Assembly: GCA_002440965.1 (NCBI GenBank)
Contig: DJWJ01000031.1
Span: forward strand, 6,348 to 70,347
DNA length: 64,000 nucleotides
Direction: 5' to 3'
DNA from: Candidatus Omnitrophica bacterium UBA6233
GTDB lineage: Bacteria > Omnitrophota > Gorgyraeia > Gygaellales > Profunditerraquicolaceae
In this document: one piece after another, positions 17,456 through 36,414 of the stretch
Position numbering within the stretch: the stretch's first letter is position 1
Layout: each line of letters starts with the position of its first letter
The notes under the pieces: generated by a model
Told to the model about the DNA's origin: nothing
The model's database searches: none
What the model saw: the letters and a program-made list of their open reading frames with translations, nothing else
Program-made: the position numbers and the translations under genes

Positions 17456-17470
17456 AAAGGATGGAAAATT

Positions 17471-18475: not shown

Positions 18476-18503
18476 TTGACAGGAAAAAGTAGGTAAGTAT
18501 AAT
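18476..18503 (+). promoter_or_regulatory. Perfect-consensus sigma70 promoter, leaderless configuration
   Basis: TTGACA (18476-18481), 16-nt spacer, TATAAT (18498-18503). The ATG of the next ORF sits at 18510, 6 nt after the -10. Confidence 0.45.
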
Positions 18504-18509
18504 ATTTAT

Positions 18510-18780: not shown

Positions 18781-18945
18781 ATGAAGTTTGCCTTCGTTTT
18801 TCTTATTTGTCTCTTAGGCATGATGCTGCCATGGAGGCTTAGGGTTATTTATTGCGATATCCTTGGTTGGATATTGCAAGGTGTTTATATGGCATATTTT
18901 TTCATTCTTAAGACCATTATAAGTTCCCTTAAGAAAAATAAATGA
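18781..18945 (+). CDS. 54-aa hydrophobic miniprotein, ATGA-coupled to downstream gene (tentative)
   Basis: MKFAFVFLICLLGMMLPW... Stop TGA at 18943-18945 overlaps the ATG at 18942 of the PP-loop gene. Confidence 0.25.
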   Translation: MKFAFVFLICLLGMMLPWRLRVIYCDILGWILQGVYMAYFFILKTIISSLKKNK

Positions 18946-21253: not shown

Positions 21254-23206
21254 ATGGCGGATAATTCTATTAAACATAAAAAGATAGGCATAATCCTGGC
21301 CGTTATTTTAGTTCTTCTTTTTGCCTCATTATTCTATTATCCGGTAATAAAGGATCTCGGGAACACGGTCATCAGTGAGGATGATTGGTTCGGGGAATAT
21401 TTCTACGCCGGTTTGACACGGAAATCGATTGTCGAGTATTTTCAACTGCCCCTGAATACCCCTTATTTGAGCGGCGGATATCCTTATATATCCCATCCGT
21501 GGGATTATACCTTTAATCCATTTTTATTATTTATATTGCCCTTCGGGGAAGTATCAGGCTTAAGGATTGCAGTTTTTTTGACTTTCCTTCTGGGCGCGTT
21601 AGGTATGTTTTACCTAACAAAAAGTGTATTGAAATTTAATTTATTAGGAGCGGTTTTTTCCAGCCTTACTTTCATATTCTGCAATTGGGGTGCTTATGAA
21701 GTTGTAGATGGGAATATCCATCAGTACATATATTATTATTTTCTTCCTTGGCTGCTCGCTTTCTTTAAGAAATCGGCGGATGACAGGAATTGTCTTTTAT
21801 TTTCTTGCCTGATTTTATCATTTTACATAATGAATAGCGGGTTATCATTGATCGTTGTTCTGTTATTCTTGTTTATGAGTGCTTCTTTGGATTCTATAAG
21901 TATAAGTAGCAAGCCAAAAATTAAAATTAATCCTTTAATTCCGGTCGTTCTCTTGATTGTCTTAGGTTTAAGTATCTTATTGTCCGCCGTGAAAATAATA
22001 CCTATGTATAATCTATATTCATTGAGAGCAGAATGCATCCATTTGCCATATGAAGATATATATTCCAAGGTTTCTGCCGCTACAGATGCTTTTCATGCAT
22101 CTTTGAATATGGATCGGCTCTGGAGGGGGTTATTTACTGGTTACTTAGGTTATTCTTCAATGCATCTTGGTTATTTGCCCGTTATTATTGCCTTTTTTTC
22201 AATCCTCCTTTATTTTAAGGAAAACCTGCGTTACTTGATATTGTTAGTCGTATTTACTTTAATCGCTTTTGGGAAAAATAGTCCGATTGATATTTTTAAG
22301 ATTATTTGGCATATTCACCCCGTGGTCCATGGTATTTGGAGACTGGATAAATATTTCTGTTTCTTTATACCGTTTTTTATCTCCATTATTGCAGGAAGAT
22401 TCTTTCTTATAGTTGAAAAGCGTCGCAAGCTCTACCTCTTCGCTATTTTGCTGGCCATAATCAGCGTAGGCAATATTTATATTCAAAATCAGGCGGTATT
22501 CAAAAAGATGGTATATGAATATAAGCCTAAATTAAAAATATATAGTGATTTCTTTCAGGTAAAAATAGAGGACGCACTTGTCAGGCGTGAGCGTCCGGGT
22601 TTCTTCGATATACACGATTTGCGTGATTATCAGCCATTTTGGCTGCTTTTGGGGCAGAATCTGGGCGTAACAGATTTTAATTGGAACGGCAACTTGAGGC
22701 TTAAGGAGAACGCTATCCCTAGATACTTTTTGCCTTTAGGCGAGAAAATGGGAAGGGAGAAAACGTTTTTCGTAAAGGGATATGAATGTTTACCGAAGGG
22801 TCGCTTTTCACTGGTTGATTTGGTAAGTAAAGGCGAGAGTAACCCTAAATATAAGGGGGAATTTTTCTTTTTGGATAAAACCAATGAAGCGTCCCAAATT
22901 TACTTTAGTCCTAATATTATGGAGTTTAGCGTTGAGCTCAAGAATCCCGATACATTGGTAATTAATCAAAACTACAACAGTAATTGGAGGACGGATACAG
23001 GGATTCTCCAGGAGTACGGTGGCCTCTTAGCGGTTAAGTTCAGTGAAGCGGGAAAATACAGGATTAGACTGAGGTATATCCCGAAGGATTTCTATTTAGG
23101 CCTTCTTATAAGCTTGTTTACCGTAGCGGTATTCATTGTGTTTTGGATAAAAAATAATACCCGGGATAAATCTGTCGGGGGGCGTGTATTGGGGAGTCGG
23201 AGATGA
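21254..23206 (+). CDS. Large polytopic membrane protein (possible GT-C/YfhO-like)
   Basis: About 12 or more TM segments with a C-terminal soluble domain. 650 aa. No definitive motif. Confidence 0.45.
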   Translation: MADNSIKHKKIGIILAVILVLLFASLFYYPVIKDLGNTVISEDDWFGEYFYAGLTRKSIVEYFQLPLNTPYLSGGYPYISHPWDYTFNPFLLFILPFGEVSGLRIAVFLTFLLGALGMFYLTKSVLKFNLLGAVFSSLTFIFCNWGAYEVVDGNIHQYIYYYFLPWLLAFFKKSADDRNCLLFSCLILSFYIMNSGLSLIVVLLFLFMSASLDSISISSKPKIKINPLIPVVLLIVLGLSILLSAVKIIPMYNLYSLRAECIHLPYEDIYSKVSAATDAFHASLNMDRLWRGLFTGYLGYSSMHLGYLPVIIAFFSILLYFKENLRYLILLVVFTLIAFGKNSPIDIFKIIWHIHPVVHGIWRLDKYFCFFIPFFISIIAGRFFLIVEKRRKLYLFAILLAIISVGNIYIQNQAVFKKMVYEYKPKLKIYSDFFQVKIEDALVRRERPGFFDIHDLRDYQPFWLLLGQNLGVTDFNWNGNLRLKENAIPRYFLPLGEKMGREKTFFVKGYECLPKGRFSLVDLVSKGESNPKYKGEFFFLDKTNEASQIYFSPNIMEFSVELKNPDTLVINQNYNSNWRTDTGILQEYGGLLAVKFSEAGKYRIRLRYIPKDFYLGLLISLFTVAVFIVFWIKNNTRDKSVGGRVLGSRR

Positions 23207-24198
23207 AATTACAGGATAAACTTGAATCTTTAGTTTCAATGTTAAAAGCAAGATTCTTAGGTAAGCGGATTCCTCTTGCCGTGCGCCTGCAGGTGACGAA
23301 TCGTTGTACCTTGCAATGTAAATATTGCAACCTTTGGAATTCCGAGAAAAGCGAGCTTGGAACCGGAGATATCCTTAGGTTAATAAAAGAGCTTGCATCT
23401 CTGGGGACCAAGAGGATTTCGATCAGCGGAGGTGAGCCGTTACTAAGAGCCGATATCGCCGAGATTATCGATTGTTGTTGGAAAAACGGGATTTATCCCG
23501 AGATGAACTCCAACGGTTCGGTAGTCCCGGAGAAAATCGGGGTCGTCAAAAAGATCGATTTCCTTAAACTCAGCCTTGATGGTCCTGAAGAAATCCATGA
23601 TTATGTCAGAGGGGCTGGTTCCTACAGGAGGGTAATAGAGGCCGCAGAGGCTGCATTTAAGAACAAGGTCAATTTTGGTTTCGCTTGTACATTAACGAGA
23701 TTCAATGTTAATTCTTTGGATCATATTCTAGCCTTGTCAGAGAAATACGGAGCTATCGCTGCCTTTCAGCCTTTAAAGCAAATCTATCGTGGAATAAAAG
23801 ACATCACAGATATTGCTCCATCGCCAGAAGAGTTCCGTTCGGCTATAGCCAGTTTGATTGTTAAAAAAAAGTCAGGTAATAGATATATTCGTAATTCTTT
23901 GGCGGGACTAAAACATATATGCAGCTGGCCCCACTATGCAAAATTGAAATGTTGGGCCGGACGTATCTTTTGTATCATCGATACTGATGGAACATTATAT
24001 CCCTGCGATAGGATAGATTATCACATGGAATTACCCAATTGTATCTCCTTGGGTATCGGGAATGCCTTAAGTCTGCTTCCTTATGTCCGCTGCGGCGGTT
24101 GCGGATTTTGCGGAGCTCTAGAATTGAATTATCTTATGCAGCTTAAGCTCAATGGCATGCCGTCGATTAGAAAAATAATAAATTTCAGGAAAAGATAA
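23203..24198 (+). CDS. Radical SAM/SPASM-domain protein (paralog 1 of 5)
   Basis: VTNRCTLQCKYCN (CxxxCxxC), GGEPLL. C-terminal Cys-rich SPASM region (CWAGR...DGTLYPCD...CGGCGFCG). Confidence 0.75.
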   Translation: MKLQDKLESLVSMLKARFLGKRIPLAVRLQVTNRCTLQCKYCNLWNSEKSELGTGDILRLIKELASLGTKRISISGGEPLLRADIAEIIDCCWKNGIYPEMNSNGSVVPEKIGVVKKIDFLKLSLDGPEEIHDYVRGAGSYRRVIEAAEAAFKNKVNFGFACTLTRFNVNSLDHILALSEKYGAIAAFQPLKQIYRGIKDITDIAPSPEEFRSAIASLIVKKKSGNRYIRNSLAGLKHICSWPHYAKLKCWAGRIFCIIDTDGTLYPCDRIDYHMELPNCISLGIGNALSLLPYVRCGGCGFCGALELNYLMQLKLNGMPSIRKIINFRKR

Positions 24199-26099
24199 TG
24201 AGCGGATTCGTCGGATGTTTAAATTTTGAGGGTAGAGGAGTTGACAAAGAGACTCTGCAGGTGATGTTGAAAACTATCTCACACAGGGGCTCCGGGGAAG
24301 GGGGATTTTTCGGAGATAAGAATTTTTCCGTCGCTTATATCGGCCCAGGGTTCTCCGGTCCCGGCGCTAAAAATGACCAATCCGCTATAGGTAGTTCCGA
24401 AAGAATTACAGTGGTTTGTGACGCAGAGATATATAATTGGCGGGAGCTTAAGGATATACTGGAAGCCGATGGATTCGTTTTTGAGACGGGTTCTGATTCC
24501 GAAGTCATCCGGAATAGCTATATCCGTTGGGGACCGGGTTGTTTTAATAAATTTAACGGCATATTTGCGTTATGCATATTTGATAAGTATGCAAATGAGC
24601 TAATATTAGCCAGAGACCATCTCGGGATAAAGCCTATATATTTTTACCAATCGGGCGACGTCCTGATATTTGCCTCTGAAATAAAGGCCTTGCTTGCCGG
24701 CGGGTTTGTCCCCAGAAAGATAGATTATCAGGCCTTGAATGACTATTTTTCCTTCGGTTTTTCGGTTATTCCTAAAACGCTTGTCCGGGGAGTTGAAAGG
24801 CTGTCTCCCGGCTCGTATCTAAGCTGCGGCAGGCATGGTTTTAGAAAGGTCCAATATTGGGATGCGATTCCCGCAAGAAGCAAGAAAAAAGCGATCCGTT
24901 ATTACGAGGAAGAATTTTCTTATCTTCTGGAGGATTCCATAAAATTAAGATTAAAGGGGGATGGGGTTAAAGGTATCTTGTTAAGCGGAGGGATTGATTC
25001 GTCTGCTTTGACATATTTCATTACCAGGGATATCCCTGGGATCCTTACGTTTTCAATTGGATTTAAAGAGAAAGAGCGCGTTTTTGACGAAAACAGGAAT
25101 TATGCTTCTTTGGTTGCCGAGAAGTTTTCCACGCGGCATAAAGATATGTTCCTTGAGGCAGAGAGGACCGATATAAATCAGCTTAGAGAAATAACTAGAT
25201 TCAATGATGATTTATCCGGTTATCCGTGTATGGTTGCCGAATTCTTTCTCTCGCGTTTTGCCGGAGATAAGGTTGAGATTGTTTATGACGGGACCGGGGT
25301 AGAACAGATTTTAGGAGGTTTGGATACCGATAAGGCCGATAAAGCCTTGTATTTCTACAAGGCGTTTCCATCCTGGTTCAGGAATTTTCTGGCCGAAAGT
25401 ATCTCTAAGAGGATTCCGGTGCGCGACAGGACTCCGGAAGATCTGTTTTTCAGGCTGAAGAAATTTCTCTACGGCTCAAAGTTCCCTCCCGAGGTTGCCC
25501 ATTTTAAATGGAGAGAGATATTTTCCGAGCAGGATAAGATTGGACTTATCCATCCTGCTTTGCTGGAGATGATGAATTCAAGGTCTCCTTCAAGCGTGTA
25601 TGAATATTATTATCGGAATGCCGGGGATGTTGCCTTGTTCGAGAAATTTTTATACGCCGACCAGAAGATAATATTGGAGACTCTACTTAAGAGATTGGAC
25701 GGGGTCTATTCGGCATCCGGCCTCTCGGCGAGATTTCCGTATTTGGACTACAGATTTGTCGAGCTATGTGCCGGGTTGCCTACGGAGTTGAAGATAAACG
25801 GCCTGACAAACAAATATATGCTCAGGAGGGCTATGAGAGGGAAGCTGCCTGCGTGGGTAATTAACCGGAAGAAACGGGGTTTGACTTTGCCTCTTAATCT
25901 TTGGATAAAGGGTAGTTGGCGTAAGATGATAAACGATATCCTGTTTTCTTCGTCTTTAACCGGGACATATTTTAGTCGCAGCTATATCGAGAAGATGATT
26001 CGGGAGCATAACGATAATAGAGAAGATCACAGCTGGAAAATCTTTAGTTTGATCTCTTTTTATCTGTGGGCGGAGATATATGATATAGATACAAAATAG
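24198..26099 (+). CDS. Asparagine synthetase (AsnB)-family amidotransferase homolog lacking the N-terminal Cys
   Basis: N-terminal MSGFVGC has Ser where the Ntn Cys2 should be. PP-loop LLSGGIDSSAL in the synthetase domain. 633 aa. Confidence 0.8.
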   Translation: MSGFVGCLNFEGRGVDKETLQVMLKTISHRGSGEGGFFGDKNFSVAYIGPGFSGPGAKNDQSAIGSSERITVVCDAEIYNWRELKDILEADGFVFETGSDSEVIRNSYIRWGPGCFNKFNGIFALCIFDKYANELILARDHLGIKPIYFYQSGDVLIFASEIKALLAGGFVPRKIDYQALNDYFSFGFSVIPKTLVRGVERLSPGSYLSCGRHGFRKVQYWDAIPARSKKKAIRYYEEEFSYLLEDSIKLRLKGDGVKGILLSGGIDSSALTYFITRDIPGILTFSIGFKEKERVFDENRNYASLVAEKFSTRHKDMFLEAERTDINQLREITRFNDDLSGYPCMVAEFFLSRFAGDKVEIVYDGTGVEQILGGLDTDKADKALYFYKAFPSWFRNFLAESISKRIPVRDRTPEDLFFRLKKFLYGSKFPPEVAHFKWREIFSEQDKIGLIHPALLEMMNSRSPSSVYEYYYRNAGDVALFEKFLYADQKIILETLLKRLDGVYSASGLSARFPYLDYRFVELCAGLPTELKINGLTNKYMLRRAMRGKLPAWVINRKKRGLTLPLNLWIKGSWRKMINDILFSSSLTGTYFSRSYIEKMIREHNDNREDHSWKIFSLISFYLWAEIYDIDTK

Positions 26100-26158
26100 G
26101 TTATTGAGCCGCTGGAAAAATACTTTTGCAGATTCGGACTTAAAGAGAAAGGCAGGGA

Positions 26159-27385
26159 ATGATGAAATCCGCAGGAATAATCAAGAAATGCTTTTCGGTC
26201 GTATTGGGCATACTGGTAATTTTACTTATACTTGAAATGATTTTGAGGGTTTCCGGTTGTCTTTATTTCTTTCTTCGCCGGGACCGGCAGATGATAGAAA
26301 GATTGAATGATGGAAAAAGCAAGTATGCGATCTTATGTTTGGGTGAGTCATTCACATACGGGGGCGAGCTTGACCCTAAATATTCATACCCCCGTCAATT
26401 GCAGGATATCTTCGATAAGCGTAATCCCGGCGCAAATGTTCTAGTCGTAAACGGGGGTATCTGCGAATATAATTCTTCCCAGGTCCTCGAAAATTTACTT
26501 AGGAATATCCGTAAGTATAAGCCTAAGCTGATTGTTTTACTGGTAGGCTCCAGCAATAGGTTTAACTTTATAGGTTTTAGCCAGGATAGTTCTATAATTT
26601 CGGAATCCAGGCAGTTTGTATATCGACTCAGGGTATACAAATTATTCAAGATAGCCGCGCTTAACTTAAGGCAAAAGCTCTTCGAGATGAGGGTAGGCAA
26701 GGAAATAGATAAGATTTCAGGTAAGCTGGAACGTTACGCGTTCCTGGATGCTATCGATCCCGATAAACACATTCTTGAGGATATTGCGGACGAAAACCAT
26801 GACTTGATAGTATGCCTCAGGAGATTGGGTGACGAAAAATCCTTTCTGGAGTTATTTAAGAAATATACCGGAGAACATCAGGATCCTTATCTTTTACAAT
26901 ACCAGGTATCCGAGTTTATGGAAGATATATACGGCGGGACTAACAAGGATTCGAAGACTATTCTTTCTGAGATGCAAAAGAAGCTAAAGGAGGCTCCGGA
27001 TCTGAAGGATAATAAGAATTTCTTCTTTTACTATTATTTATTCTTCAAAAAGATGAAAGACATTTATAGCGATGAGCGCATAGATAATTGGTTAAGAAAC
27101 GATTTAGAAAAAATAGCGGAGATTTGCCGTAAAAACAACATCAAGCTGGTTCTCCAGGAGTATCCATATCCTTATCCTGACGCTAATGCTGTCTTGCGCA
27201 AGATAGCGGAAAAATATTCGTTACCGCTGGTCAGAAACGGCAAGGGTTTCGGAGAGTTAATTATGAAAGAAGGCAAGAAACGTTACTTCCTCGATGACAG
27301 CCACTGCACCGCGGCGGGTTACGGAGTTATGGCCAAGAATGTCTACGAAGTGATTGAGCCGGAGGTATCCGGGAAGAGACATTAA
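26159..27385 (+). CDS. Membrane-anchored SGNH/GDSL-like hydrolase
   Basis: N-terminal TM. LGESFTYG (block I, GDSxT-like). C-terminal DDSHCT (DxxH). 408 aa. Confidence 0.5.
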   Translation: MMKSAGIIKKCFSVVLGILVILLILEMILRVSGCLYFFLRRDRQMIERLNDGKSKYAILCLGESFTYGGELDPKYSYPRQLQDIFDKRNPGANVLVVNGGICEYNSSQVLENLLRNIRKYKPKLIVLLVGSSNRFNFIGFSQDSSIISESRQFVYRLRVYKLFKIAALNLRQKLFEMRVGKEIDKISGKLERYAFLDAIDPDKHILEDIADENHDLIVCLRRLGDEKSFLELFKKYTGEHQDPYLLQYQVSEFMEDIYGGTNKDSKTILSEMQKKLKEAPDLKDNKNFFFYYYLFFKKMKDIYSDERIDNWLRNDLEKIAEICRKNNIKLVLQEYPYPYPDANAVLRKIAEKYSLPLVRNGKGFGELIMKEGKKRYFLDDSHCTAAGYGVMAKNVYEVIEPEVSGKRH

Positions 27386-27399
27386 TTATTTATAATACT

Positions 27400-28377
27400 A
27401 TGAACATAGCCGACAAGTTAAATTTAGCATCCGCGTTTATAAACGCAAGATTCTTCGGAGCCAGGAGGCCAGCTATAGTGAATTGGGCTCTTACTTATAG
27501 ATGCAACCGTTCCTGCAGGTATTGCGGCGTTTCCGATAACAAAACAGTTGAATTAAGCACCCGGGAAGCGATTTCCGCGATAGATGAAATGTGCGATTGC
27601 GGCACTAGAAAAATACATTTTACTGGGGGAGAGCCTTTGGTAAGAGAAGATTTTCTTCAGCTGCTTGGTTATTGCCGAAAGAAAGGGATAAGTATAAGCG
27701 TAAACTCAAATGGCGCCCTGGTTCGGCAGGGAATAAAGAGTCTTAGAGGGATAGACGGGTTATCTTTAAGTTTAGACGGTCCCCAAGAGATACACGATGC
27801 TGTCAGGGGAGAGGGATCATACTATGAGGTTATGGATGCGGTAAAATACGCTAAGGAAAACAATATAAAGGTTCGGTTTACAACAGTATTATCAAAATTA
27901 AATCTATCAAGTATCGGTTTTGTTTTAAGGAAAGCCGAAGAGCTGAATACGGCAGTGATCTTTCAGCCGGCACAGAAATTCCTTTTAGAAACCAAGAAAA
28001 TCAATCCTATAGCAGCTTCTATTGTGGAGTATAGAAATGTGATTGCTAAATTAATAGAAAAGAAGCGTAAGAACAGGTTTATAGGTAATTCGTTGTCTGG
28101 TTTGCATCATTTATACCACTGGCCTTCTTTAATAAGAATTTCTTGTGTAAATGCTTTGGTTATTTGCCGGATCGAGCCGAGCGGGGAAATTTACGGTTGC
28201 GCTGATTTTAAGGGTAGGCCATCCGGGATTAAAATACAGGAAGCAGGATTCAGGAAGGCATTCTATAGCCTTGTGCCGTTAACTTGTAATGAATGTTGGT
28301 GCGCTTCTTATACGGAGCTGAATTGTTTGTTTTCAGGGAAACCGGATTCCATCCTTAACCTGAAAAAGTTGATTTAA
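27400..28377 (+). CDS. Radical SAM/SPASM-domain protein (paralog 2)
   Basis: LTYRCNRSCRYCG, GGEPLV, C-terminal SPASM Cys cluster. Alignable with 23203-24198. Confidence 0.75.
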   Translation: MNIADKLNLASAFINARFFGARRPAIVNWALTYRCNRSCRYCGVSDNKTVELSTREAISAIDEMCDCGTRKIHFTGGEPLVREDFLQLLGYCRKKGISISVNSNGALVRQGIKSLRGIDGLSLSLDGPQEIHDAVRGEGSYYEVMDAVKYAKENNIKVRFTTVLSKLNLSSIGFVLRKAEELNTAVIFQPAQKFLLETKKINPIAASIVEYRNVIAKLIEKKRKNRFIGNSLSGLHHLYHWPSLIRISCVNALVICRIEPSGEIYGCADFKGRPSGIKIQEAGFRKAFYSLVPLTCNECWCASYTELNCLFSGKPDSILNLKKLI

Positions 28378-28387
28378 AACATTATTT

Positions 28388-29371
28388 ATGGTTAGAAGGG
28401 TATTTAATATTTTCTATTGTTTATCGCTAGCAAGGATTTTTGGGATTAGATTTCCATTGCTGGTTGGCTGGTCAATTACAAATAGGTGTAATTCCGAATG
28501 TCTTTATTGCACTTCTTGGAGAGATAAAAAAGATGAGCTTAATACACAGCAGTTGTTTTCTATTATCGATGAGCTTGCTGAGATGGGTACGCAGAGTATC
28601 AGTTATACCGGGGGAGAGCCGCTTATCAGAGAGGATATCGGGAGGATAGTAAGATATACGAAGAGCAAAGGCATAAAAACCGGTATATCCAGTAATGGCT
28701 TACTCGTAGGGGGTAAAATTGACGATATCAAAGGTATAGATTCTCTTGTCTTGAGTTTCGACGGAGAAGAAGAGATACATGATATGCAGCGCTGCAGTGG
28801 ATCATACCGGAAAGTATTAGAAGCGATCAGATTGGCGAAAAAAAATGATATTTTCACAAGGCTCCATACCGTTTTAACCAAGAATAATATAGACTCCGTT
28901 GATTATATACTTGATTTTGCTAAAAGAGAGAAGCTGATTGTAAGTTTTACGGTGGTAGAATTCGATCCTTTTAGCGAAAAAGAAGAAATTCTAAAGCTTC
29001 TTCCCCAAAAGGAAAAATTCAGAGCGGTTATATCAAGGCTTATATCGGAGAGGAAAGATGGAAATAAATATTTAGGAAATTCGCCCGTTGGTTTAGAATA
29101 CCTTTTAAGTTGGCCATATTGCAAAAGGATGCTTTGTTCAGCCGGCAGGATTTATTGTCGGATAGAATCTAATGGCGATGTTTTTCCTTGCGCAAACCTG
29201 GTAAATGAAACTGTGCCTCAAAACTGCGTTAAGGATGGTTTTCGGAATGCTTTTAAGAAATTATCGCTGAATAATTGCGACGCTTGTTGGTGCGATACGC
29301 GTATAGAAATAAATTATATATATTCGTTTAATTTAGAAGCGATCTATAATGCAAAATCGATTTTTCGTTAA
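28388..29371 (+). CDS. Radical SAM/SPASM-domain protein (paralog 3)
   Basis: ITNRCNSECLYCT, GGEPLI, SPASM cluster (CSAGR...DVFPCA...CDACWC). Confidence 0.75.
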   Translation: MVRRVFNIFYCLSLARIFGIRFPLLVGWSITNRCNSECLYCTSWRDKKDELNTQQLFSIIDELAEMGTQSISYTGGEPLIREDIGRIVRYTKSKGIKTGISSNGLLVGGKIDDIKGIDSLVLSFDGEEEIHDMQRCSGSYRKVLEAIRLAKKNDIFTRLHTVLTKNNIDSVDYILDFAKREKLIVSFTVVEFDPFSEKEEILKLLPQKEKFRAVISRLISERKDGNKYLGNSPVGLEYLLSWPYCKRMLCSAGRIYCRIESNGDVFPCANLVNETVPQNCVKDGFRNAFKKLSLNNCDACWCDTRIEINYIYSFNLEAIYNAKSIFR

Positions 29372-29410
29372 GAACCGCGTTAAATCACTGAAACGTTTAG
29401 TATTTATTAT

Positions 29411-31015
29411 ATGCCGGTAATGAAAAAAAATAACTCCTTTTTATATTTAATTGCGGCCTTTTCGCTTTTAGTTACTTTGTATTGTCAGTTTCCCCTTTTG
29501 ACGAATAAGTTCGCAATAGATGATGATGTGCGCCAGGAGATCTATCACTATGAGCGCTATAGGGATAAGGATTTATTCAAGGATGATTTAATAGTAACGG
29601 ATTATTTGAAGAAATGGAACCCGATCGGTCTTAATTCTTTCTATTATTTAATAAGCAAGATATACGATCCGGTTCAATTTACGAAAATCCTGCCATTTTT
29701 TCTTTGCCTATTTTCGGTAATTTACATGTATTTAATTGGTAGGACATTAAGGAATGGTTCAGCCGGTTTATTGTCCGGCCTTATGTTTATTTTTCTTGCT
29801 TGGAGTAGAAAGGATTTCGCTGCTTTTAGCACTGGTAATGGAGAGGATTTCGGTATACTTTTTTGCATAATGTTTATCTATTATTTTCTCAAGAAGGATT
29901 CTCTGAAAACCGGGATATCTTTGGTTTTGCTCGCTTTATTCTATCCGCCTTTACTGATAATTTGCCTGTTGACATGCATATTTTGCCTAGTATTTGAATT
30001 TTCACGGAGTGGTATAATTAAAAAGAAAGACTTAATAATTTTAGCTTCTGTATTGTTTATAGTCTTAGTTACATTAATAATAGAGTATGGCGATGGTAAG
30101 ATAAAGATGTTGTCCTTAAAGGAAATGAGAAATATGCAAGAGTTTTATCCCTGGGGGAGAAAACCGCTTTTTTTCGCTTCATTTTACCGGCGTTGGACAA
30201 ATGCGGAAAGTGGGATAGCCTTGGATTATCCTGTCGCTTGGCTGGCTGTAGTATCTTTTTTACTGTTCTTATTTCGCAGGAAAAAGGCGTTAGCAAATTT
30301 GCCTTGTTCATTATGGTATTTTATTTTTATATCTTTTATTATGTTTATAATTGCAAATATCGTCATGTTTCGTTTATATGGTCCTTCCAGGTTCTTGAGA
30401 TACCCACTGCCTTTATTCCTGATCTTTTTTGTTGCGGTAAATATAAGCGATATAATAAACAGTATTAAATCTGTTCGCAGAAAGTCGGTGTTCTTACTCG
30501 GATTTATTTTTTTGACTATGCTTTGTTTTGTTCCAAAACTAAAAGCTCGTTATAGAATAGCGCCTTATCCTAGTCTATATGCTTTTTTGCAAACATTGCC
30601 AAAAAACGCGCTTATTGCCGGAGAGCCATTTTTAATGGATGATATTCCGACTTTCGCAAAAAGAAAAGTCTTGATGGATGATGAAGTTTCTCAGCCTTAC
30701 TTTGCGGATTTTTACCCGCTTATTAAAGAGAGGATTTTTGATTTTTTCGGAGCCTATTATTCGGATTCTTACGAAAAAGTATGCGATTTTTGCCGAAAAT
30801 ACGAAGTAACTTATTTAGTCGTGAACAAAAAACATTTTTCGCCGGATTATTTGACAGGGAAGTTTATTTATTACAATCCTTTCAACGGTTATATTAAGAA
30901 TTTAATAAAAGATAGGCCGGTATTATTGTTGGCTAATATCCCGGAAGAAAAAAAGATATTTAAAGACGGCGACATATTTGCGCTTAAGGTAGAAGATATC
31001 TGTAAGGAGAAATAG
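29411..31015 (+). CDS. Polytopic membrane protein (possible GT-C-like)
   Basis: Multiple TM segments. IDDDVRQE acidic loop after TM1. C-terminal soluble domain. 534 aa. Confidence 0.45.
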   Translation: MPVMKKNNSFLYLIAAFSLLVTLYCQFPLLTNKFAIDDDVRQEIYHYERYRDKDLFKDDLIVTDYLKKWNPIGLNSFYYLISKIYDPVQFTKILPFFLCLFSVIYMYLIGRTLRNGSAGLLSGLMFIFLAWSRKDFAAFSTGNGEDFGILFCIMFIYYFLKKDSLKTGISLVLLALFYPPLLIICLLTCIFCLVFEFSRSGIIKKKDLIILASVLFIVLVTLIIEYGDGKIKMLSLKEMRNMQEFYPWGRKPLFFASFYRRWTNAESGIALDYPVAWLAVVSFLLFLFRRKKALANLPCSLWYFIFISFIMFIIANIVMFRLYGPSRFLRYPLPLFLIFFVAVNISDIINSIKSVRRKSVFLLGFIFLTMLCFVPKLKARYRIAPYPSLYAFLQTLPKNALIAGEPFLMDDIPTFAKRKVLMDDEVSQPYFADFYPLIKERIFDFFGAYYSDSYEKVCDFCRKYEVTYLVVNKKHFSPDYLTGKFIYYNPFNGYIKNLIKDRPVLLLANIPEEKKIFKDGDIFALKVEDICKEK

Positions 31016-31018
31016 GAA

Positions 31019-32230
31019 ATGCCTTTTAATAAGATTCCTCATAATAGGGTAATAGTAAAAGCGGGGGAACTTTGGGGCATTCTTTTATTGTATTTAAGAA
31101 ACCAGTTGGTAAATGGCCGATACATCTCAGATTTCGAAGCGGAATTCGCAAGGTATATAGGTGTAGAATTTTCTATTGCTTTGTCTTCTGGGCGCTTAGG
31201 TTTAAGGTTAATACTTGAATCTTTAGAGTTGGATAAAGGAGATGAGGTAATTATGCCCGCGTATACTTTTTATGCTGTTCGGGAAACCATAGAAAAATGT
31301 GGCCTCAAGCCGGTCTTAGTAGACGTAAATGAAGATGACTGTAATATGCAGGTGGGTCTTATCGAGGGGAAGATTACTATAAGGACAAAGGCAATAATTG
31401 CGACTCATCTTTATGGTAATTCCTGCGAGTTGAACCGAATATTAGAGATTGCCGGTAAGTATAATTTGTTTGTTATTGAAGATTGCGCTCAGGCATTAGG
31501 GGCGCAATATTGCGGAAGAAGAGTGGGTTCTTACGGTGATTTTTCGTTTTTTAGCCTCGAGTCGGTAAAACCGTTTCATACCTTTGGCGGAGGTGTGATA
31601 GCTACGAATAACCCCCTCTTATATGCAAAACTAAGAAATCTGGTTGAAAAATTGCCTCGTCCCAGCTGTTATGGCATATTCAAAAAAATAAATTTTACGA
31701 TTATAGAGGCCATATTAACCTGTCCTTTTTTCTTTTCCGTATTTGTTTATCCTATTTTACTGGGCACATCTTTTTTAAATAAAGATTTGAAGGGCATCGC
31801 GAAAAAAACAAAAAATAAATTCAAGATTTTTGAAAGCAAGTATTCCAATTTTCAGGCATATATAGGGCTTCAGAAATTACGTGATCTGGATAAATTGTTA
31901 AACAAAAGAATTGCCAACGCCAAGCTTTTGATTTCCGGGTTAAGACCCGGGATATTTACTCAGGAAGTCAAGTCCTGTTTAAAGCCGATATTTTATTATT
32001 TAGTTTTAAAAAGCGGCAATGCTTGTATGTCCAGTAGAATATTGCTTAGAAAAGGAATCGATGTGGATTCAAATTTGGTGCAGAAATGCTCTGAATTTTT
32101 AGCGGAAGAAGAATATCCTATTACTTGTCGGATCAGTAAGGCAACGCTTTTAATTCCTGTGTATCCGCAGTTGAGTAATCGCGAGATAAGGTATGTTTGT
32201 AAAATAATAAACCAGGTTTTCAGCGAATGA
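31019..32230 (+). CDS. DegT/DnrJ/EryC1/StrS-family PLP-dependent sugar aminotransferase (with unusual hydrophobic insert)
   Basis: Aminotransferase N-terminal region, FSLESVKPF (PLP-Lys). Typical C-terminal. About 40-aa hydrophobic insertion at aa 215-255. Confidence 0.65.
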   Translation: MPFNKIPHNRVIVKAGELWGILLLYLRNQLVNGRYISDFEAEFARYIGVEFSIALSSGRLGLRLILESLELDKGDEVIMPAYTFYAVRETIEKCGLKPVLVDVNEDDCNMQVGLIEGKITIRTKAIIATHLYGNSCELNRILEIAGKYNLFVIEDCAQALGAQYCGRRVGSYGDFSFFSLESVKPFHTFGGGVIATNNPLLYAKLRNLVEKLPRPSCYGIFKKINFTIIEAILTCPFFFSVFVYPILLGTSFLNKDLKGIAKKTKNKFKIFESKYSNFQAYIGLQKLRDLDKLLNKRIANAKLLISGLRPGIFTQEVKSCLKPIFYYLVLKSGNACMSSRILLRKGIDVDSNLVQKCSEFLAEEEYPITCRISKATLLIPVYPQLSNREIRYVCKIINQVFSE

Positions 32231-33207
32231 AACTTACTCAGAAACTAAACATTATATTTTCACTTGTAGCTAAAAGGATAATGAAAGTCAAGGCCCCGCT
32301 TTTGGTCAGTTGGTCTTTAACTAATAGATGTAACTACCGATGCCAATATTGCGGTATTTGGAAAGAAAATACAAAAGAGTTAAATACTAGTGAGGTATTT
32401 TTCGTGATAGATGAATTATCTAGATGTGGAAATAAGGCGATTGCATTTACGGGTGGCGAATCGCTAATGCGTGATGATATTATAGATATAATAGACTATT
32501 GTTCTTACCGGGGTATATATACCAAGCTATCGACCAACGGTTCTTTAGTTAAGGATAAGATAAACGGGCTTAGCAAGATAGGTTTTGTGCGAATGAGTTT
32601 TGATGGACCGAAAGAGGTTCATGACGCCCAGCGGCAAAACGGTTCCTATGATGAAGTTGTTGCTGCTGTGGATTTGTTGAGAAAAAATAATATTAAAGTA
32701 GGTTTAAATTGCGTTATTTCAAAATTGAATGCAGGTCACATCAGCGATATTCTAAATGAAGCAAAAAAAATGGATTTAAGGATTTCTTTTCAGCCCCTGG
32801 AGTATAGGAATAATAGGGAATTTTTATTTGAAAATATGCCCAGTAACGAAGAATATAAAAAAGTTTTTGAGATACTTCTTGCTGAGAAAATAAGAGGCAA
32901 CAGGTATATAGCGAATTCGCCCATGGTGTTAAGTTATATGCTTAATGGTTTCCGGCAGAGTAGTATTAAATGTTGGGCGGGATTATTAATTTGGAGAATA
33001 ACGCCGGAGGGGGAAATTATGGCCTGCGACAGATTAGAGGGATCCACTGAATCCTACTCATGTTTGGACGGAGAAATAGGCAAGGCGCTTAACATGATGG
33101 GCCCTGTCCATTGCTCAAAAATGTGTTTAAGGAATTATACTATTGAATTGAACTATCTTCTGTCATTTAAACCGTCAACCATATTGAATTTAAGATATGA
33201 TTTTTAG
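32227..33207 (+). CDS. Radical SAM/SPASM-domain protein (paralog 4)
   Basis: LTNRCNYRCQYCG, GGESLM, SPASM cluster. Confidence 0.75.
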   Translation: MKLTQKLNIIFSLVAKRIMKVKAPLLVSWSLTNRCNYRCQYCGIWKENTKELNTSEVFFVIDELSRCGNKAIAFTGGESLMRDDIIDIIDYCSYRGIYTKLSTNGSLVKDKINGLSKIGFVRMSFDGPKEVHDAQRQNGSYDEVVAAVDLLRKNNIKVGLNCVISKLNAGHISDILNEAKKMDLRISFQPLEYRNNREFLFENMPSNEEYKKVFEILLAEKIRGNRYIANSPMVLSYMLNGFRQSSIKCWAGLLIWRITPEGEIMACDRLEGSTESYSCLDGEIGKALNMMGPVHCSKMCLRNYTIELNYLLSFKPSTILNLRYDF

Positions 33208-33213
33208 GTATGT

Positions 33214-34455
33214 ATGAAACATAAAATATTTTTTATTATAATTAATATTTTTATTGTTTGTGTTTTATTGGTAATCCTAGAGGTGTCTGCGCATTTAGTT
33301 CCTGGCAAAAAAGATCTTCTGGAAGAGATAGTTAATGTTCTTGAGGAGGATTCTTTGCTTTTTTGGAGACAAAAGCCAAACCTGCAAACAATGTTCCAGG
33401 ATTTTCCAGTAGAAACAGATTCTCTTGGCTTGCGCGTAAATAGATATGCATATCAGCAGGGGACAGGCCATATATTTAGAATTGTTTGTCTGGGGGCCTC
33501 GCCTACATTCGGCTGGGCCGTTAAATATGAAGATACCTATTCCTGCCAATTAGAGAAGATGCTTAATAAAAGTTACGGCAAAAATAAAGCATATGAAGTG
33601 ATTAATGCCGGAGTTATAGGATATTCATCTTATCAGGGGTTGCTTTTTCTAAAAAGGGATATATTAAAACTGAAGCCGGACCTTATTACGGTCGCCTATG
33701 GCCTTAATGATGCGGATAGGCATCGTTTCTTCAGAAGTAACGGTAAGAGCGATAAAGAATTAAAACCAAAGAGCTTATTCCTGGTTTCTTTGGAGAATTT
33801 ACTCAACAGGAGCCTGTTTTTCAGATTATGCAAGAACTTTATTTTTAAAGTAGAGAGTGTCAGGACTGAGTTTTCGGGTAACAAGGGGGATGTTTATTTC
33901 GGGAGGTTAAGAGTTTCTGCTCAGGATTTCAGGAATAATATCAATGAAATTATACGCATCGCAAACCAAAATGGGATAAAAGTTATATTAGTGAAAATTC
34001 CTATAAATTCCGCTTCTTCCGAGGAAAAACCCTTGATTCAACAGGCTCAATATGACATTGCTCTTTCTAGGGGATTGGATTATTTGAAAGCAAAAAGAAT
34101 AAACGATGCAATTGTTCAATTTAAAGATGCTCTTACATATGATTCTTCATCCAGCAGAGCTTTTTTTTATTTAGCTGCTTGTTATGAAATGAAAAAAGAA
34201 CCTGTAGCTGCTCAGGATTATTTTCAAGAAGCAAAAAAAATGCAAGTTGTTCAATTGAGGACGGATTTGGAAGTTTATAACGGTATAATTGAGGAGATAG
34301 CTGAGGCCAAGGAAGTGCCATTGGCAGATGCCGGGCCGGATTTTATTAGAAATAAAGAAAAAAAATTGTTCGCTACTCCTATTCATCCTAATAACGAAGG
34401 CCACAAAATTGTCGCAACAGTAATTTATGATGCAATGTTACGGTATAATCTTTAG
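33214..34455 (+). CDS. Membrane-anchored SGNH-like hydrolase with TPR-like segment
   Basis: N-terminal TM, LGASPTFG, C-terminal HPNNEGH. Paralogous architecture to 26159-27385. Confidence 0.45.
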   Translation: MKHKIFFIIINIFIVCVLLVILEVSAHLVPGKKDLLEEIVNVLEEDSLLFWRQKPNLQTMFQDFPVETDSLGLRVNRYAYQQGTGHIFRIVCLGASPTFGWAVKYEDTYSCQLEKMLNKSYGKNKAYEVINAGVIGYSSYQGLLFLKRDILKLKPDLITVAYGLNDADRHRFFRSNGKSDKELKPKSLFLVSLENLLNRSLFFRLCKNFIFKVESVRTEFSGNKGDVYFGRLRVSAQDFRNNINEIIRIANQNGIKVILVKIPINSASSEEKPLIQQAQYDIALSRGLDYLKAKRINDAIVQFKDALTYDSSSSRAFFYLAACYEMKKEPVAAQDYFQEAKKMQVVQLRTDLEVYNGIIEEIAEAKEVPLADAGPDFIRNKEKKLFATPIHPNNEGHKIVATVIYDAMLRYNL

Positions 34456-34464
34456 AGGGTAGAT

Positions 34465-35448
34465 ATGGATTTGTGGACTAAAATCGGATTTGCAAAATCA
34501 ATAATTCAGGTTATTCTTTTCTCGCGGAGAATTCCTTTGATAGTCAGCTGGCATTTAATAAATAGATGCAGCCGCAGTTGTATTTATTGTTCCAGGTGGA
34601 AAACAGCTACGGGCGAAATGGAAAATAATGAAATCCTAGGGGTTATTGATGAATTGGCGAAAATGGGAACTCGGGTTATTATATTTAGCGGCGGCGAACC
34701 GTTATTAAGAGACAATATCGGTGAAATTATAAGTTACTGCCGGAGCAAGGGTATATTTACCGGCTTGACCAGTAACGGGGATTTGGTAGAGAGAAAGATA
34801 AACGAGATTAAAGAACTGAATGTCCTTAAATTAAGCCTTGATGGTCCGGAAGAAATACATGATTTTCTGCGGGGTAAAGGTTCCTTTGATAAAGTCATGG
34901 AAGCAGTTGAGGCAGCAAAGAAGGTAGGGATACCGGTTAAATTTAATACGACCTTAACCAGATACAATATAGGATGCATAGATTTCCTGTTGGCAAAAGC
35001 AGAAGAGTTAGACATTCAGATAAAATTCCAGCCTGTTAGTCATGTGCATGCGCCGGACAGAGACATCAGCGATTTGCTGCCCGAAGCTAATAAATATCAA
35101 GAGACAATAAGCCGGCTCATTTATCTTAAGAAACGCAACCCATATATAATAAACTCGACTTCCGCACTTAAATACCTTTATGCTTTGCCAAAGGGCAAAA
35201 AAATTAATTGCTATGCCGGTAGAATCATCTGTTGTATAATGCCTGACGGGCGTGTTGCGCCATGTTCTGCTATAAGAGATAGTTTTTATTCCGTTAGTTG
35301 TTTATCCGTTAGGTTTAAAGATGCTTTTGATAAGTTGCCGCCGGTTTATTCATGCAAGGGTTGTTGGTGCACAAGCACATTAGAATTGAATTGTTTTTTA
35401 AGGTTTGATTTAGATACGTTTTTAAACATGAAGAATATGTTTAAATAG
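34465..35448 (+). CDS. Radical SAM/SPASM-domain protein (paralog 5)
   Basis: LINRCSRSCIYCS, GGEPLL, SPASM cluster (CYAGR...DGRVAPCS...CKGCWC). Confidence 0.75.
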   Translation: MDLWTKIGFAKSIIQVILFSRRIPLIVSWHLINRCSRSCIYCSRWKTATGEMENNEILGVIDELAKMGTRVIIFSGGEPLLRDNIGEIISYCRSKGIFTGLTSNGDLVERKINEIKELNVLKLSLDGPEEIHDFLRGKGSFDKVMEAVEAAKKVGIPVKFNTTLTRYNIGCIDFLLAKAEELDIQIKFQPVSHVHAPDRDISDLLPEANKYQETISRLIYLKKRNPYIINSTSALKYLYALPKGKKINCYAGRIICCIMPDGRVAPCSAIRDSFYSVSCLSVRFKDAFDKLPPVYSCKGCWCTSTLELNCFLRFDLDTFLNMKNMFK

Positions 35449-35523
35449 GTAACTGTAAAAATATAATATTAAAAAGAGGATAGAGAGAATAGGGATAAAT
35501 AGTTTAAAATGGAGGGAGTCGAG

Positions 35524-36261
35524 ATGAAGAAGCTATTTTTCTTATTGCTAATGAATATAAGTCTTTCCGCGACATGTTTATATGCGGGTTATGATTTAGA
35601 AAAGTATTTTCCTACTGGCCAGAAAGATATCTGGGCTTATTCTATGGTGGAACATGATATTGGACAGGAGGCGGGTAAAAATGAAGCGGAGATTGGCGTA
35701 GAAGTAAGATTCTTAAAAGATGGAACAGGGAATGACTTATATGGGCCTATTCGTATGTTAATCAAGTATAGCGATGGAGAACGGAATGAGTATTCTATAA
35801 GCAAGGATTCGGAAGGAATAAAGGTTAGCAAGTTCGTTAAAGAAAACAACTATTATTCCGTTTTTGAACCACCGTTTTTGTTGCTACCTTCTAAAATTAA
35901 CGAAGGAGAAACTAAAGAATATTCTGGTATTATCACTTATTTTGATTCAGATAAGGAAAAAGGGAAAGCAAAGATTAAAAGAGAGCTTACCGCGAATGGT
36001 TTGGAGGATGTAGAGACAAAAGCGGGCGTATTTAAAAACTGCGTTCGCATTTACGTTAAAGAGGTTATTAATAAAGAAAACGGTGAAGTAAAGAATAAGT
36101 TCTATACGTTCTGGTTTAGCCCTGAAGCCGGAGAAGTTAAAGAAGTCGTCAGGACGATTACCTTCCGTTTGGCGGAGAATGAGTATAAAAAAACTTCCTC
36201 CGATGAGAGTACGATGGAGCTAAAAAGAACTACAGTAAACGGGAGAAGTTTTGGTAATTAG
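35524..36261 (+). CDS. Secreted hypothetical protein (signal peptide)
   Basis: GGAGGGAG RBS 7 nt before ATG 35524. MKKLFFLLLMNISLSATCLYA is a signal peptide. Predicted beta-rich. Confidence 0.5.
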   Translation: MKKLFFLLLMNISLSATCLYAGYDLEKYFPTGQKDIWAYSMVEHDIGQEAGKNEAEIGVEVRFLKDGTGNDLYGPIRMLIKYSDGERNEYSISKDSEGIKVSKFVKENNYYSVFEPPFLLLPSKINEGETKEYSGIITYFDSDKEKGKAKIKRELTANGLEDVETKAGVFKNCVRIYVKEVINKENGEVKNKFYTFWFSPEAGEVKEVVRTITFRLAENEYKKTSSDESTMELKRTTVNGRSFGN

Positions 36262-36414
36262 CCGTTTGAATTCCCACCTTTTTATGCTAATTATTTCTCC
36301 ATAAATGCGTATAAAATTTATCTATTGGACGTTAATTTCTTTATTGTTTTTTTTCTGTATTCCCTACATTCATAATTGTTGTTCTCGCGATTATGTTTGG
36401 GAGGATTTTTAAAA

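Follow-up and report, generated by a model that had tools for sequence, protein, structure and literature searches.

Radical S-adenosylmethionine (SAM) enzymes of the Twitch type that act on sugars are already known from antibiotic pathways. Sugar-acting radical SAM enzymes with solved structures include the Twitch dehydrogenases BtrN and SpeY and also BlsE, DesII, and AprD4. BtrN is the 2-deoxy-scyllo-inosamine dehydrogenase of butirosin biosynthesis, and its ketone product is transaminated by a partner aminotransferase. HygY is a Twitch epimerase, while NeoN and the avilamycin enzyme are further radical SAM epimerases. Here, we compare with these systems five paralogous radical SAM genes, R1 to R5 (open reading frames [ORFs] at 23203, 27400, 28388, 32227, and 34465), from Candidatus Omnitrophica bacterium UBA6233. 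The window, that is, the whole stretch of DNA that was analyzed, comprises 64,000 nucleotides (metagenome-assembled genome, GenBank assembly GCA_002440965.1, contig DJWJ01000031.1, positions 6,348 to 70,347 of the forward strand), and positions are given in its coordinates. A preliminary description made from the letters alone had proposed that these enzymes perform position-specific radical chemistry on a glycan or glycoprotein carrier and had called this an unusual role for the enzyme class. With BtrN, SpeY, BlsE, DesII, and AprD4 already acting on sugars, that judgment was overstated, and the kind of enzyme is not new.

R1 to R5 resemble BtrN, SpeY, HygY, and NeoN in having a radical SAM core and a single C-terminal Twitch-type site with four cysteines placed around a hairpin and helix alpha2', in lacking a recognition element (RRE) for ribosomally synthesized and posttranslationally modified peptides (RiPPs), and in the carbohydrate-type small-molecule substrate that we propose for them. 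R4 is also paired with a DegT-family aminotransferase, a further likeness to BtrN. They differ from BtrN in length (about 325 amino acids [aa] with a full six-strand barrel versus about 250 to 270 aa), and from BtrN-type enzymes generally in lying in envelope polysaccharide loci of uncultured anaerobes rather than in aminoglycoside clusters and in forming 3 to 6 differentiated paralogs per locus, with extra cysteines in most subfamilies. BlsE, from the blasticidin S pathway, is only 17% identical, and no nucleoside-antibiotic genes are present here; its decarboxylase function is not transferable. Unlike CteB, SkfB, PqqE, SuiB, AlbA, MftC, and anSME, R1 to R5 have no RRE or PqqD domain, no precursor gene, and no second half of the seven-cysteine SPASM motif, and their NCBIfam scores are all 3- to 8-fold below family cutoffs.

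The neighboring genes recall two other kinds of system. The Arn pathway (ArnB, ArnC, ArnD, and ArnT) and the three-component glycosylation systems GtrA/B/C, CsbB/GtcA/YfhO, and PgfS/PgfM, in which a modified sugar is placed on polyprenyl phosphate, flipped, and then added outside by a GT-C enzyme, share with our locus the combination of DegT, an ArnC-like family 2 glycosyltransferase (GT2), and a PMT_2, YfhO, or other GT-C-fold transferase. Deacetylase-type genes occur in related loci, and we propose here the same tailoring of a sugar before outer-face GT-C transfer. Unlike the Arn pathway, the ArnA-type NAD-dependent dehydrogenase would be replaced or supplemented by radical SAM enzymes, and a single locus encodes eleven radical SAM domains together with five GT-C enzymes. 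The hopanoid set HpnI (GT2), HpnK (YdjC), HpnJ (B12-binding radical SAM), and HpnL (LPG_synthase_TM) is mirrored by the same four domain types beside Twitch enzymes in related loci. HpnJ, a precedent for radical SAM remodeling of a lipid-linked amino sugar, is the best match of the B12-binding radical SAM proteins in the window, albeit at only 163 to 208 bits against a cutoff of 578. Hopanoid synthesis genes are absent from the window, and nothing in the Hpn module corresponds to the Twitch family.

In the searchable literature (radical SAM combined with O-antigen, polyprenyl, GT-C, lipopolysaccharide, or Omnitrophota), we found no description of this family or of such arrays. What appears to be new is the occurrence of 3 to 6 paralogs alongside SPASM and B12-binding radical SAM enzymes, coupled in modules to polyprenyl-phosphate GT2 and GT-C genes in envelope polysaccharide loci of Omnitrophota and Patescibacteria.

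Radical SAM core and C-terminal domain of R1 to R5

All five genes are present on the + strand and encode proteins of 325 to 331 aa: R1 (23203..24198, 331 aa), R2 (27400..28377, 325 aa), R3 (28388..29371, 327 aa), R4 (32227..33207, 326 aa), and R5 (34465..35448, 327 aa). Each matched the radical SAM family PF04055 well above the Pfam cutoff of 29.5 bits (77 to 101 bits; E values of 3e-21 to 8e-29 overall, with 2.8e-21 for R1, 3e-25 for R2, 1.6e-22 for R3, and 7.6e-22 for R4). The core motifs quoted in the preliminary description proved to be a genuine family consensus, KRIPLxVxWxLTNRCNxxCxYC and SGGEPLLR. C35-x3-C39-x2-C42 and G76-G77-E78 were invariant in a 67-sequence alignment, and the three cysteines were also invariant in 113 family members. 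The R1 start overlaps the stop of the upstream 650-aa GT-C gene, the R1 stop overlaps the start of an AsnB-like gene, and the R4 start overlaps the DegT stop by 4 nucleotides; R2 and R5 lie directly 3' of SGNH hydrolase genes (26159 and 33214, respectively). Five like genes within 12 kb on one strand, interleaved with others and often joined by stop/start overlaps, exclude a chance pattern.

Pairwise identity within R1 to R5 was 36 to 41% over end-to-end alignments, and the closest relatives of each paralog sit in other genomes rather than in its own. Leaving out a near-identical strain in one related locus (L035), the best identities to proteins elsewhere were 62 to 76% for R1, 60 to 75% for R5, and at most 71, 66, and 74% for R2, R3, and R4. 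R1 orthologs were 46 to 58% identical in related loci and up to 76% identical among database proteins, and R2 orthologs reached 53% in L033 and 71% in L038. A database search with R5 returned 736 relatives at an E value of ≤1e-10. Those with a source name came from Candidatus Omnitrophota/Omnitrophica, Patescibacteria, and Planctomycetota and were annotated solely as generic radical SAM proteins or enzymes; metagenome contigs as long as 134 kb also encoded identical proteins. The best NCBIfam scores of R1 to R5 were 94 to 108 bits against cutoffs of 265 to 650 (PTO1314 family, MftC, NirJ, and AhbD), and none of the five reached a curated cutoff among the models matched (MftC, PqqE, ScmE, NirJ, AhbD, PapB, StsB, and others). 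Judged by sequence comparison, R1 to R5 are ancient, differentiated members of one Twitch-type radical SAM family of about 325 aa. Their earlier portrayal as homologous but diverged thus holds and fits separate, specific jobs.

The preliminary description had also assigned them a C-terminal SPASM cysteine cluster, which is correct only in part. The SPASM motif is CX9-15GX4C-gap-CX2CX5CX3C-gap-C and binds two auxiliary clusters, while Twitch is a shortened SPASM domain with one auxiliary cluster, whose ligands lie before and after a beta-hairpin and after helix alpha2' (PMC6231123). R1 to R5 retain the first half of that seven-cysteine motif (C249-x12-G262-x4-C267, R5 numbering), the second half is cut to C297-x2-C300(-x-C302), and the chain stops about 25 residues on; the CX2CX5CX3C...C half is not present in any of the five. 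The Pfam SPASM model PF13186 gave 17.8 and 16.7 bits in two of them, below the cutoff of 21.5, and no match in the other three. We scored C-terminal cysteines over the 113 full-length family members. C249, C267, and C297 were present in 100% and C300 in 99%, followed by C256 (78%), C279 (73%), and C302 (64%). The SPASM/Twitch fold and four invariant cysteines stand, whereas the full seven-cysteine motif is lacking.

An AlphaFold2 model of R5 built from 67 homologs (predicted local distance difference test score of 93.4; predicted template modeling score of 0.92) placed these residues. It has a single N-terminal helix (residues 3 to 19), a six-strand radical SAM barrel of six beta/alpha units from residue 26, and a C-terminal beta-hairpin (255-258/263-265) with a short helix (284 to 289) after it. 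C249 precedes the hairpin, C267 lies behind it, and C297 and C300 lie behind the helix. The fully ligated Twitch cluster of BtrN is arranged in this way (PMC6231123), and on this we base a Twitch-like assignment. By this model, the C-terminal domain of R1 to R5 is a Twitch-like, truncated SPASM domain with a predicted auxiliary cluster site, and the overall fold is of the SPASM/Twitch class. Compared with solved structures, the model matched BlsE best (cytosylglucuronate decarboxylase, PDB 7vob; score of 27.2 over 282 aligned residues at 17% identity), followed by SkfB (24.2), anSME (23.4), viperin (23.1), SuiB (22.9), PqqE (22.6), MoaA (21.6), DesII (18.4), and BtrN (14.6).

The paralogs differ in their additional cysteines. 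R4-type proteins keep the four invariant cysteines, with C302 in 0 of 7, C256 in 1 of 7, and C279 in 4 of 7, so that some have the four alone. R1-type proteins have a CX2CX2C arrangement, the cysteines of R1 itself being C249, C256, C267, C279, C297, C300, and C303, and most R5-type proteins have all nine cysteines at the tracked positions. As a check for a second cluster site, we asked whether C256, C279, and C302 covary; across members they vary largely independently. R1 to R5 have no predicted transmembrane (TM) segment and no export signal. We considered the N-terminal helix as a membrane anchor, which would have hinted at lipid-linked substrates, and rejected it, as hydrophobic moments were low (0.12 to 0.43).

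Conserved modules in related loci

We compared the gene order of the window with that of 11 related loci (labeled L007, L008, and so on in this comparison) and viewed two further loci separately. A scan of genome_contigs with the R5-ortholog alignment gave 2 true family loci, the 19 others being unrelated radical SAM genes of about 30% identity, and the same alignment gave five loci in metagenome_contigs; the neighborhood statistics rest on about 12 loci. Loci whose annotations name Omnitrophota, Patescibacteria, or Planctomycetia retain the association with glycan genes, in support of the earlier description. Kin of R1 to R5 occur there with small GT2s, GT-C, PMT_2, or YfhO-like proteins, DegT, SGNH, AsnB, B12-binding radical SAM, and carbamoyltransferase genes. 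Genes for YfhO, LPG_synthase_TM, YdjC, and polysaccharide deacetylases occur in related loci in addition, and as many as six paralogs stand in tandem there (L033).

The first module consists of a small GT2, a 534-aa GT-C-like protein, DegT, R4, R5, and often a 250-aa protein. In the window, these include the 534-aa membrane transferase (29411..31015, +; 9 TM segments, no Pfam match), the DegT/DnrJ/EryC1-family sugar aminotransferase (31019..32230, +; 403 aa; PF01041, E value of 2.7e-70), and a conserved secreted 250-aa protein (35509..36261, +) with an N-terminal signal-like segment and a weak DUF3108 match. The best NCBIfam matches of the aminotransferase were PseC, LegC, WecE, and ArnB, all under cutoff. 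In 6 of 6 loci with a DegT gene of this type (window, L007, L010, L033, L035, and L038), the next gene is of the R4 type. A compact form of the module, in L010, reads GT2, GT-C, DegT, R4, R5-type, R5-type. In the 21-kb L007 module, no short-chain dehydrogenase/reductase (SDR) gene was called. In L007, L010, L035, and L039, too, homologs of the 250-aa protein are found behind or close to R5-type genes (five loci including the window).

In the second module, an R1-type gene adjoins a B12-binding radical SAM gene (L008, L011, L031, L034, and L036). The window counterpart is a 473-aa protein (19790..21211, +; PF02310 and PF04055) whose best NCBIfam matches, BchE and HpnJ, scored about 164 bits, below cutoff; here, the gene of the 650-aa GT-C protein (21254..23206, +; no Pfam match) stands between it and R1. 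Homologs 53 to 55% identical to the 473-aa protein occur beside or near R1-type genes in L008, L031, and L034.

The third module comprises PMT_2, R6, an ArnC-like GT2, and R7. In the window, it begins with two ArnT-like PMT_2 genes (38464-40002, +, PF13231 E value of 1e-14; 40184-41767, +, PF13231 E value of 2.8e-11), continues with R6 (41819..42850, +; 343 aa) and a 228-aa ArnC-like GT2 (42884..43570, +; PF00535; 129 bits to the undecaprenyl-phosphate Ara4FN transferase model, below cutoff), and ends with R7 (43580..44599, +; 339 aa). This order, PMT_2, R6, GT2, R7, is conserved in L035 and L039. R7-type genes adjoin an ArnC-like GT2 in L036 and L039 and lie near GT2 and PMT_2 in L007. The two proteins had been described as a further pair of radical SAM/SPASM enzymes. 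Both are radical SAM proteins (PF04055 E value of 9e-16 for R6), but only R7 is a true SPASM protein (PF13186 at 53.4 bits, cutoff of 21.5), R6 having no SPASM match. R6 and R7 are only about 20% identical to R1 to R5 and belong to different families; R6, at about 21%, has W_rSAM_matur as its best NCBIfam match (95 bits, cutoff of 380).

Smaller associations recur as well. The R2-R3 tandem is kept in L033, L035, and L038. Instances of an SGNH gene directly or closely 5' of a Twitch radical SAM gene number two each in the window and L033 and one in L008, where a similar SGNH-TPR protein precedes the radical SAM gene. Beside the radical SAM array of another locus, on a related metagenome contig, a giant ORF (L057 1-2064, -) with a 2029-aa product runs past the locus end. 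Proteins of very great length have been reported from Omnitrophota (bioRxiv 10.64898/2026.06.07.730766), and this one is reminiscent of them.

Candidate substrates and chemistry

We think it somewhat probable, from sequence and gene context, that R1 to R5 tailor sugars in the cytoplasm, their substrates being linked to a nucleotide or to polyprenyl phosphate and later attached by GT-C enzymes. Their targets are most likely sugars rather than peptides. Because the enzymes need SAM and a low-potential reductant and lack TM segments and export signals, their site of action should be the cytoplasm, ahead of flipping or Wzm/Wzt export, and their place in modules with ArnC-like GT2s and GT-C proteins points to tailoring of activated monosaccharides ahead of transfer. 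Taken as action on a finished glycan or a glycoprotein, the earlier suggestion finds no support in these two features. We infer these substrates, this stage of action, and the dehydrogenase or epimerase chemistry described below.

In our model, a lipid-linked backbone would be built by WecA-like, GT4, and GT2 enzymes and exported by Wzm/Wzt. In parallel, the small ArnC-like GT2s would put single sugars on polyprenyl phosphate, and the five GT-C-fold transferases would add these polyprenyl-phosphate sugars at the outer face. Before transfer, sugars would be remodeled by the radical SAM, DegT, AsnB-like, carbamoyltransferase, and B12-binding radical SAM enzymes. The membrane-anchored SGNH enzymes would be part of the modules, and their catalytic domains may point outward. 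A Twitch enzyme would cleave SAM reductively, and the resulting 5'-deoxyadenosyl radical would abstract one specific sugar C-H hydrogen, with the nearby cysteine-ligated auxiliary [4Fe-4S] cluster accepting an electron. Such an electron-acceptor role has been suggested for BtrN, anSME, PqqE, and SuiB (PMC6231123). Net loss of two electrons would turn a secondary alcohol into a ketone; if a hydrogen atom is returned, the outcome would be epimerization.

R4 is the strongest specific case, given its minimal Twitch cysteine set, its coupling to DegT in every locus examined, and the absence of a called SDR gene in L007. By analogy, R4 is probably a BtrN-like sugar alcohol dehydrogenase feeding DegT, taking an alcohol to a ketone and then to an amine. 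The ketone would be the substrate of the translationally coupled DegT enzyme, giving an amino sugar without an NAD-dependent dehydrogenase. R1 would work together with the B12-binding radical SAM protein, and R6 and R7 would serve their separate PMT_2/GT2 module. For R1, R2, R3, and R5, BlsE-like decarboxylation of uronic acids is one option by analogy, in view of the AsnB-like genes and a TviC-like epimerase.

Several points weigh against this proposal. R1 to R5 are 16 to 24% identical to every characterized enzyme and reach no NCBIfam cutoff, so their chemistry cannot be transferred by homology, and SPASM/Twitch sequence or fold similarity predicts function poorly (PMC6231123, the SkfB structure paper). 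Most subfamilies besides R4 have 7 to 9 C-terminal cysteines and may bind a second auxiliary cluster and carry out other chemistry. Adjacency fits a nucleotide sugar, a polyprenyl-phosphate sugar, a growing lipid-linked glycan, or a lipid carrier alike. An SDR that supplies a keto sugar could be encoded elsewhere in the genome, and some family members are single and in weaker contexts.

Nearest to the earlier idea, the enzymes might instead act after polymerization, on an oligo- or polysaccharide that is still lipid-linked and on the cytoplasmic side, ahead of export by Wzm/Wzt. Each paralog would then be responsible for a single position in the repeat unit, by reactions such as radical epimerization or decarboxylation of uronic acids. 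Several differentiated paralogs per locus and the WecA-like, GT4, and Wzm/Wzt backbone machinery would suit this, as would BlsE, the top structural match, which decarboxylates a glucuronic acid moiety; the AsnB-like amidotransferases and the TviC-like uronic-acid epimerase homolog also hint at uronic acids. We nonetheless consider it unlikely. The tightest linkages are to ArnC-like GT2s and GT-C genes, that is, to monosaccharide-donor modules and not to the GT4 and WecA backbone genes, compact modules such as that in L010 appear self-contained for one decorated sugar, and no UDP-sugar 6-dehydrogenase was found in scans of the window. A lipid target is less likely still. Candidates for it are the polyprenyl carrier, the aglycone of a glycolipid, and membrane lipids resembling hopanoids, ladderanes, or tetraethers; the GT2 and flippase-like genes would then act in glycolipid synthesis. 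The B12-binding radical SAM proteins best match HpnJ, BchE, and a "lipid biosynthesis B12-binding/radical SAM protein" model, and HpnL-like LPG_synthase_TM and HpnK-like YdjC genes lie beside GT2s in related loci. However, these lipid-family scores are far under cutoff and weaker than the SPASM/Twitch-family scores, no squalene/hopene cyclase, polyketide, or fatty-acid genes were found in the window scans, and coupling with DegT, AsnB, carbamoyltransferase, and SGNH genes is typical of sugar tailoring. Also counting against a lipid target, HpnJ itself remodels the sugar moiety of lipid-linked glucosamine. In favor of one, genome mining has reported "ladderane" biosynthetic gene clusters in Omnitrophota (PMC9902471).

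We hold it very improbable that R1 to R5 are peptide or protein maturases (for RiPPs, anSME-like, or for a metalloenzyme), with the substrate encoded elsewhere or being DUF5989 or the 250-aa protein and the glycan genes mere neighbors. SPASM/Twitch enzymes mostly modify peptides (PMC10114670), and the best PDB sequence-profile matches of R1 to R5 were the sactisynthases CteB and SkfB. Yet Pfam detected no RRE or PqqD-like domain in R1 to R5 or any other ORF scanned in the locus, and with only about 25 residues (one helix) before the R5 core there is no space for an RRE; as the preliminary description had implied, these are not ordinary RiPP maturases. Its statement that no precursor-peptide-like ORFs are evident was likewise confirmed. 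Every intergenic gap from 23203 to 36261 is ≤60 bp, the family-matching small ORFs elsewhere in the locus are two DUF5989 microproteins only, and when 174 small ORFs lying between genes in the window and the 11 related loci were clustered, DUF5989 alone proved conserved, in 2 of the 12 loci. A DUF5989 gene does lie directly 5' of the R2 ortholog in L033, but we rejected DUF5989 as a precursor given this sparse distribution and its membership in a carbamoyltransferase/SxtJ trio. We also rejected the secreted 250-aa protein as a substrate despite its place after R5-type genes in five loci, as it has a single invariant cysteine, no repeat motif, and no Cys/Ser-rich core. No Cys/Ser/Thr-rich small ORF, RiPP protease, or RiPP exporter was found, and no sulfatase was present among the ORFs scanned. 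Profile placement in anSME or another known family had been named as a possible counterargument; no such family model reached its curated cutoff, anSME was absent from the top 25 NCBIfam matches of R1 to R5, and its PDB profile E value (1e-17) was weaker than those of CteB, SkfB, and MoaA. Finally, the linkage to glycan genes is kept across phyla, and these genes are interleaved within the operon with overlapping stop/start codons.

Building on the proposed tailoring of activated sugars by R1 to R5, a broader proposal is possible, though we regard it as rather doubtful. Omnitrophota, Patescibacteria, and related uncultured anaerobes would possess modular radical glycan-tailoring arrays of Twitch, SPASM, and B12 enzymes, each tied to its own GT2 and GT-C and replacing NAD- or O2-dependent sugar chemistry. 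These would make undescribed envelope sugars, for example, amino, amido, carbamoyl, C-alkylated, or ring-rearranged residues. Surface polysaccharide biosynthesis would then have, in the family of about 325 aa, its first dedicated radical SAM family, whose substrates may be lipid-linked sugars. If true, radical SAM sugar chemistry, so far studied chiefly in antibiotic and cofactor pathways, would extend to cell-envelope glycans, and chemically unusual surface sugars would be predicted in Omnitrophota and the candidate phyla radiation (e.g., Patescibacteria). It would also offer O2- and NAD-independent routes to keto, amino, and epimerized sugars for glycoengineering. For the R4-DegT pair, the hypothesis is concrete, involves two enzymes, and is testable in vitro. 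For genome mining, there is a warning that loci with SPASM-like and B12-binding radical SAM genes are easily scored as RiPP-like or "ladderane"; RiPP and "ladderane" clusters have been reported in Omnitrophota (PMC9902471), and loci such as this one could be scored so.

The surrounding polysaccharide locus

The locus spans about 10.6 to 61.3 kb of the window (about 50 kb) and is of the Wzm/Wzt (ABC-transporter) type. It includes three GT4, two larger GT2, two AsnB-like, and two membrane-anchored SGNH hydrolase genes, and the AsnB-like, SGNH, and glycan transferase neighbors noted earlier among R1 to R5 are all present, together with the DegT gene at 31019. The five GT-C-fold transferases are three PMT_2 proteins (12864, 38464, and 40184) and the 650-aa and 534-aa proteins. 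The latter two are GT-C proteins by their sequence features, a polytopic membrane fold and an acidic motif in the first outer loop. The 534-aa protein aligned to the PMT_2 group with an hhalign probability of 95.5% (E value of 1.4e-8) and has an invariant DD (D38 and D39) in its first loop.

Upstream of R1, the locus encodes a Wzy_C-type O-antigen ligase-like membrane protein (11511..12659, -; PF04932, E value of 7.7e-20), homologs of which lie at the edge of L007, L010, and L039. This is followed, all on the + strand, by a PMT_2 GT-C (12864-14420), an ArnC/PgfS-like small GT2 (14494-15243), a carbamoyltransferase (15265-17082), an SxtJ-like protein (17045-17455), DUF5989 (17471-17629), a second ArnC/PgfS-like GT2 (17707-18426), and a second DUF5989 (18510-18692). 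The best matches of the three small GT2s (228 to 249 aa), all below cutoff, were ArnC, PgfS, and dolichyl-phosphate hexose transferases, and these are probably polyprenyl-phosphate sugar synthases. The carbamoyltransferase, SxtJ-like, and DUF5989 genes (15265-18692) form an SxtI/J/K-like trio. In L033, DUF5989 (9793-9972) stands between an SGNH gene and the R2 ortholog, with no carbamoyltransferase in the 21 kb examined, and its role may be wider than helping carbamoylation. A 279-aa protein (18942-19781) with only an N-terminal PP-loop match (QueC-like, SGGxDS) precedes the B12-binding radical SAM gene at 19790; it may be a sugar-modifying enzyme of the adenylating amidotransferase type.

Between R1 and R2 lie a 633-aa AsnB-like amidotransferase (24198..26099, +; PF00733 and PF13537) and a 408-aa SGNH/GDSL hydrolase (26159..27385, +; PF13472) with an N-terminal membrane anchor by TM prediction. 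The best NCBIfam match of the former was TIGR03108, the XrtA/PEP-CTERM system amidotransferase (329 bits, below cutoff). Its sequence starts MSGF, so that the glutaminase nucleophile Cys2 is missing, and its substrate may be free ammonia or a different amine. A membrane-anchored SGNH hydrolase with TPR repeats (33214..34455, +; 413 aa; PF13472, E value of 5e-16, plus TPR) separates R4 from R5. A second AsnB-like amidotransferase (36376..38247, +; PF00733, E value of 4.6e-52) follows the 250-aa protein. Its annotated TTG start is doubtful, and a Cys-Gly pair occurs first at ORF residues 18 and 19.

Downstream of R7, the + strand encodes an SDR epimerase (44792), a GT4 (45941), a WecA-like initiating transferase (47103), an FAD oxidoreductase (48079-49380), a Wzm-like ABC-2 permease (49328), and a 920-aa Wzt-like ATPase (50149-52911). 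The oxidoreductase, which adjoins the WecA-like gene, is FAD/NAD(P)-binding and amine-oxidase-like, with PRK07208 "hypothetical protein" as its best NCBIfam match, and L033 has a distant counterpart (16242-17597; 22% identity) behind its radical SAM array. Pfam matches in the Wzt-like protein fall only in the ABC ATPase domain (best over residues 31 to 162), and its long, mostly unmatched C-terminal part could be a glycan-binding or tailoring domain.

Eleven radical SAM domains were found in the locus, namely, R1 to R7 and those at 19790, 52895 (two), and 56517, the last four being additional to the seven described earlier. The gene at 52895 (52895-56533, +) encodes a 1212-aa fusion of an HpnJ-like B12-binding radical SAM protein with a second radical SAM domain that has SPASM, and a further B12-binding radical SAM gene follows (56517-57980, +). 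The fusion ties the two radical SAM classes together functionally and suggests that both work on the same substrate. Its N-terminal region of about 300 aa has no assignment, its HpnJ match scored 208 bits, and a comparable 901-aa fusion occurs in L057 (4782-7487, -).

Upstream of the glycan locus, positions 249-8348 of the window hold a mobile and defense island with an IS110 transposase (249-1274), a ThsB TIR-like protein (1327-1881), a Shedu SduA_C protein (3576-4874), a DUF6602 protein (6419-7231), and an rve-type integrase (7287-8348, -).

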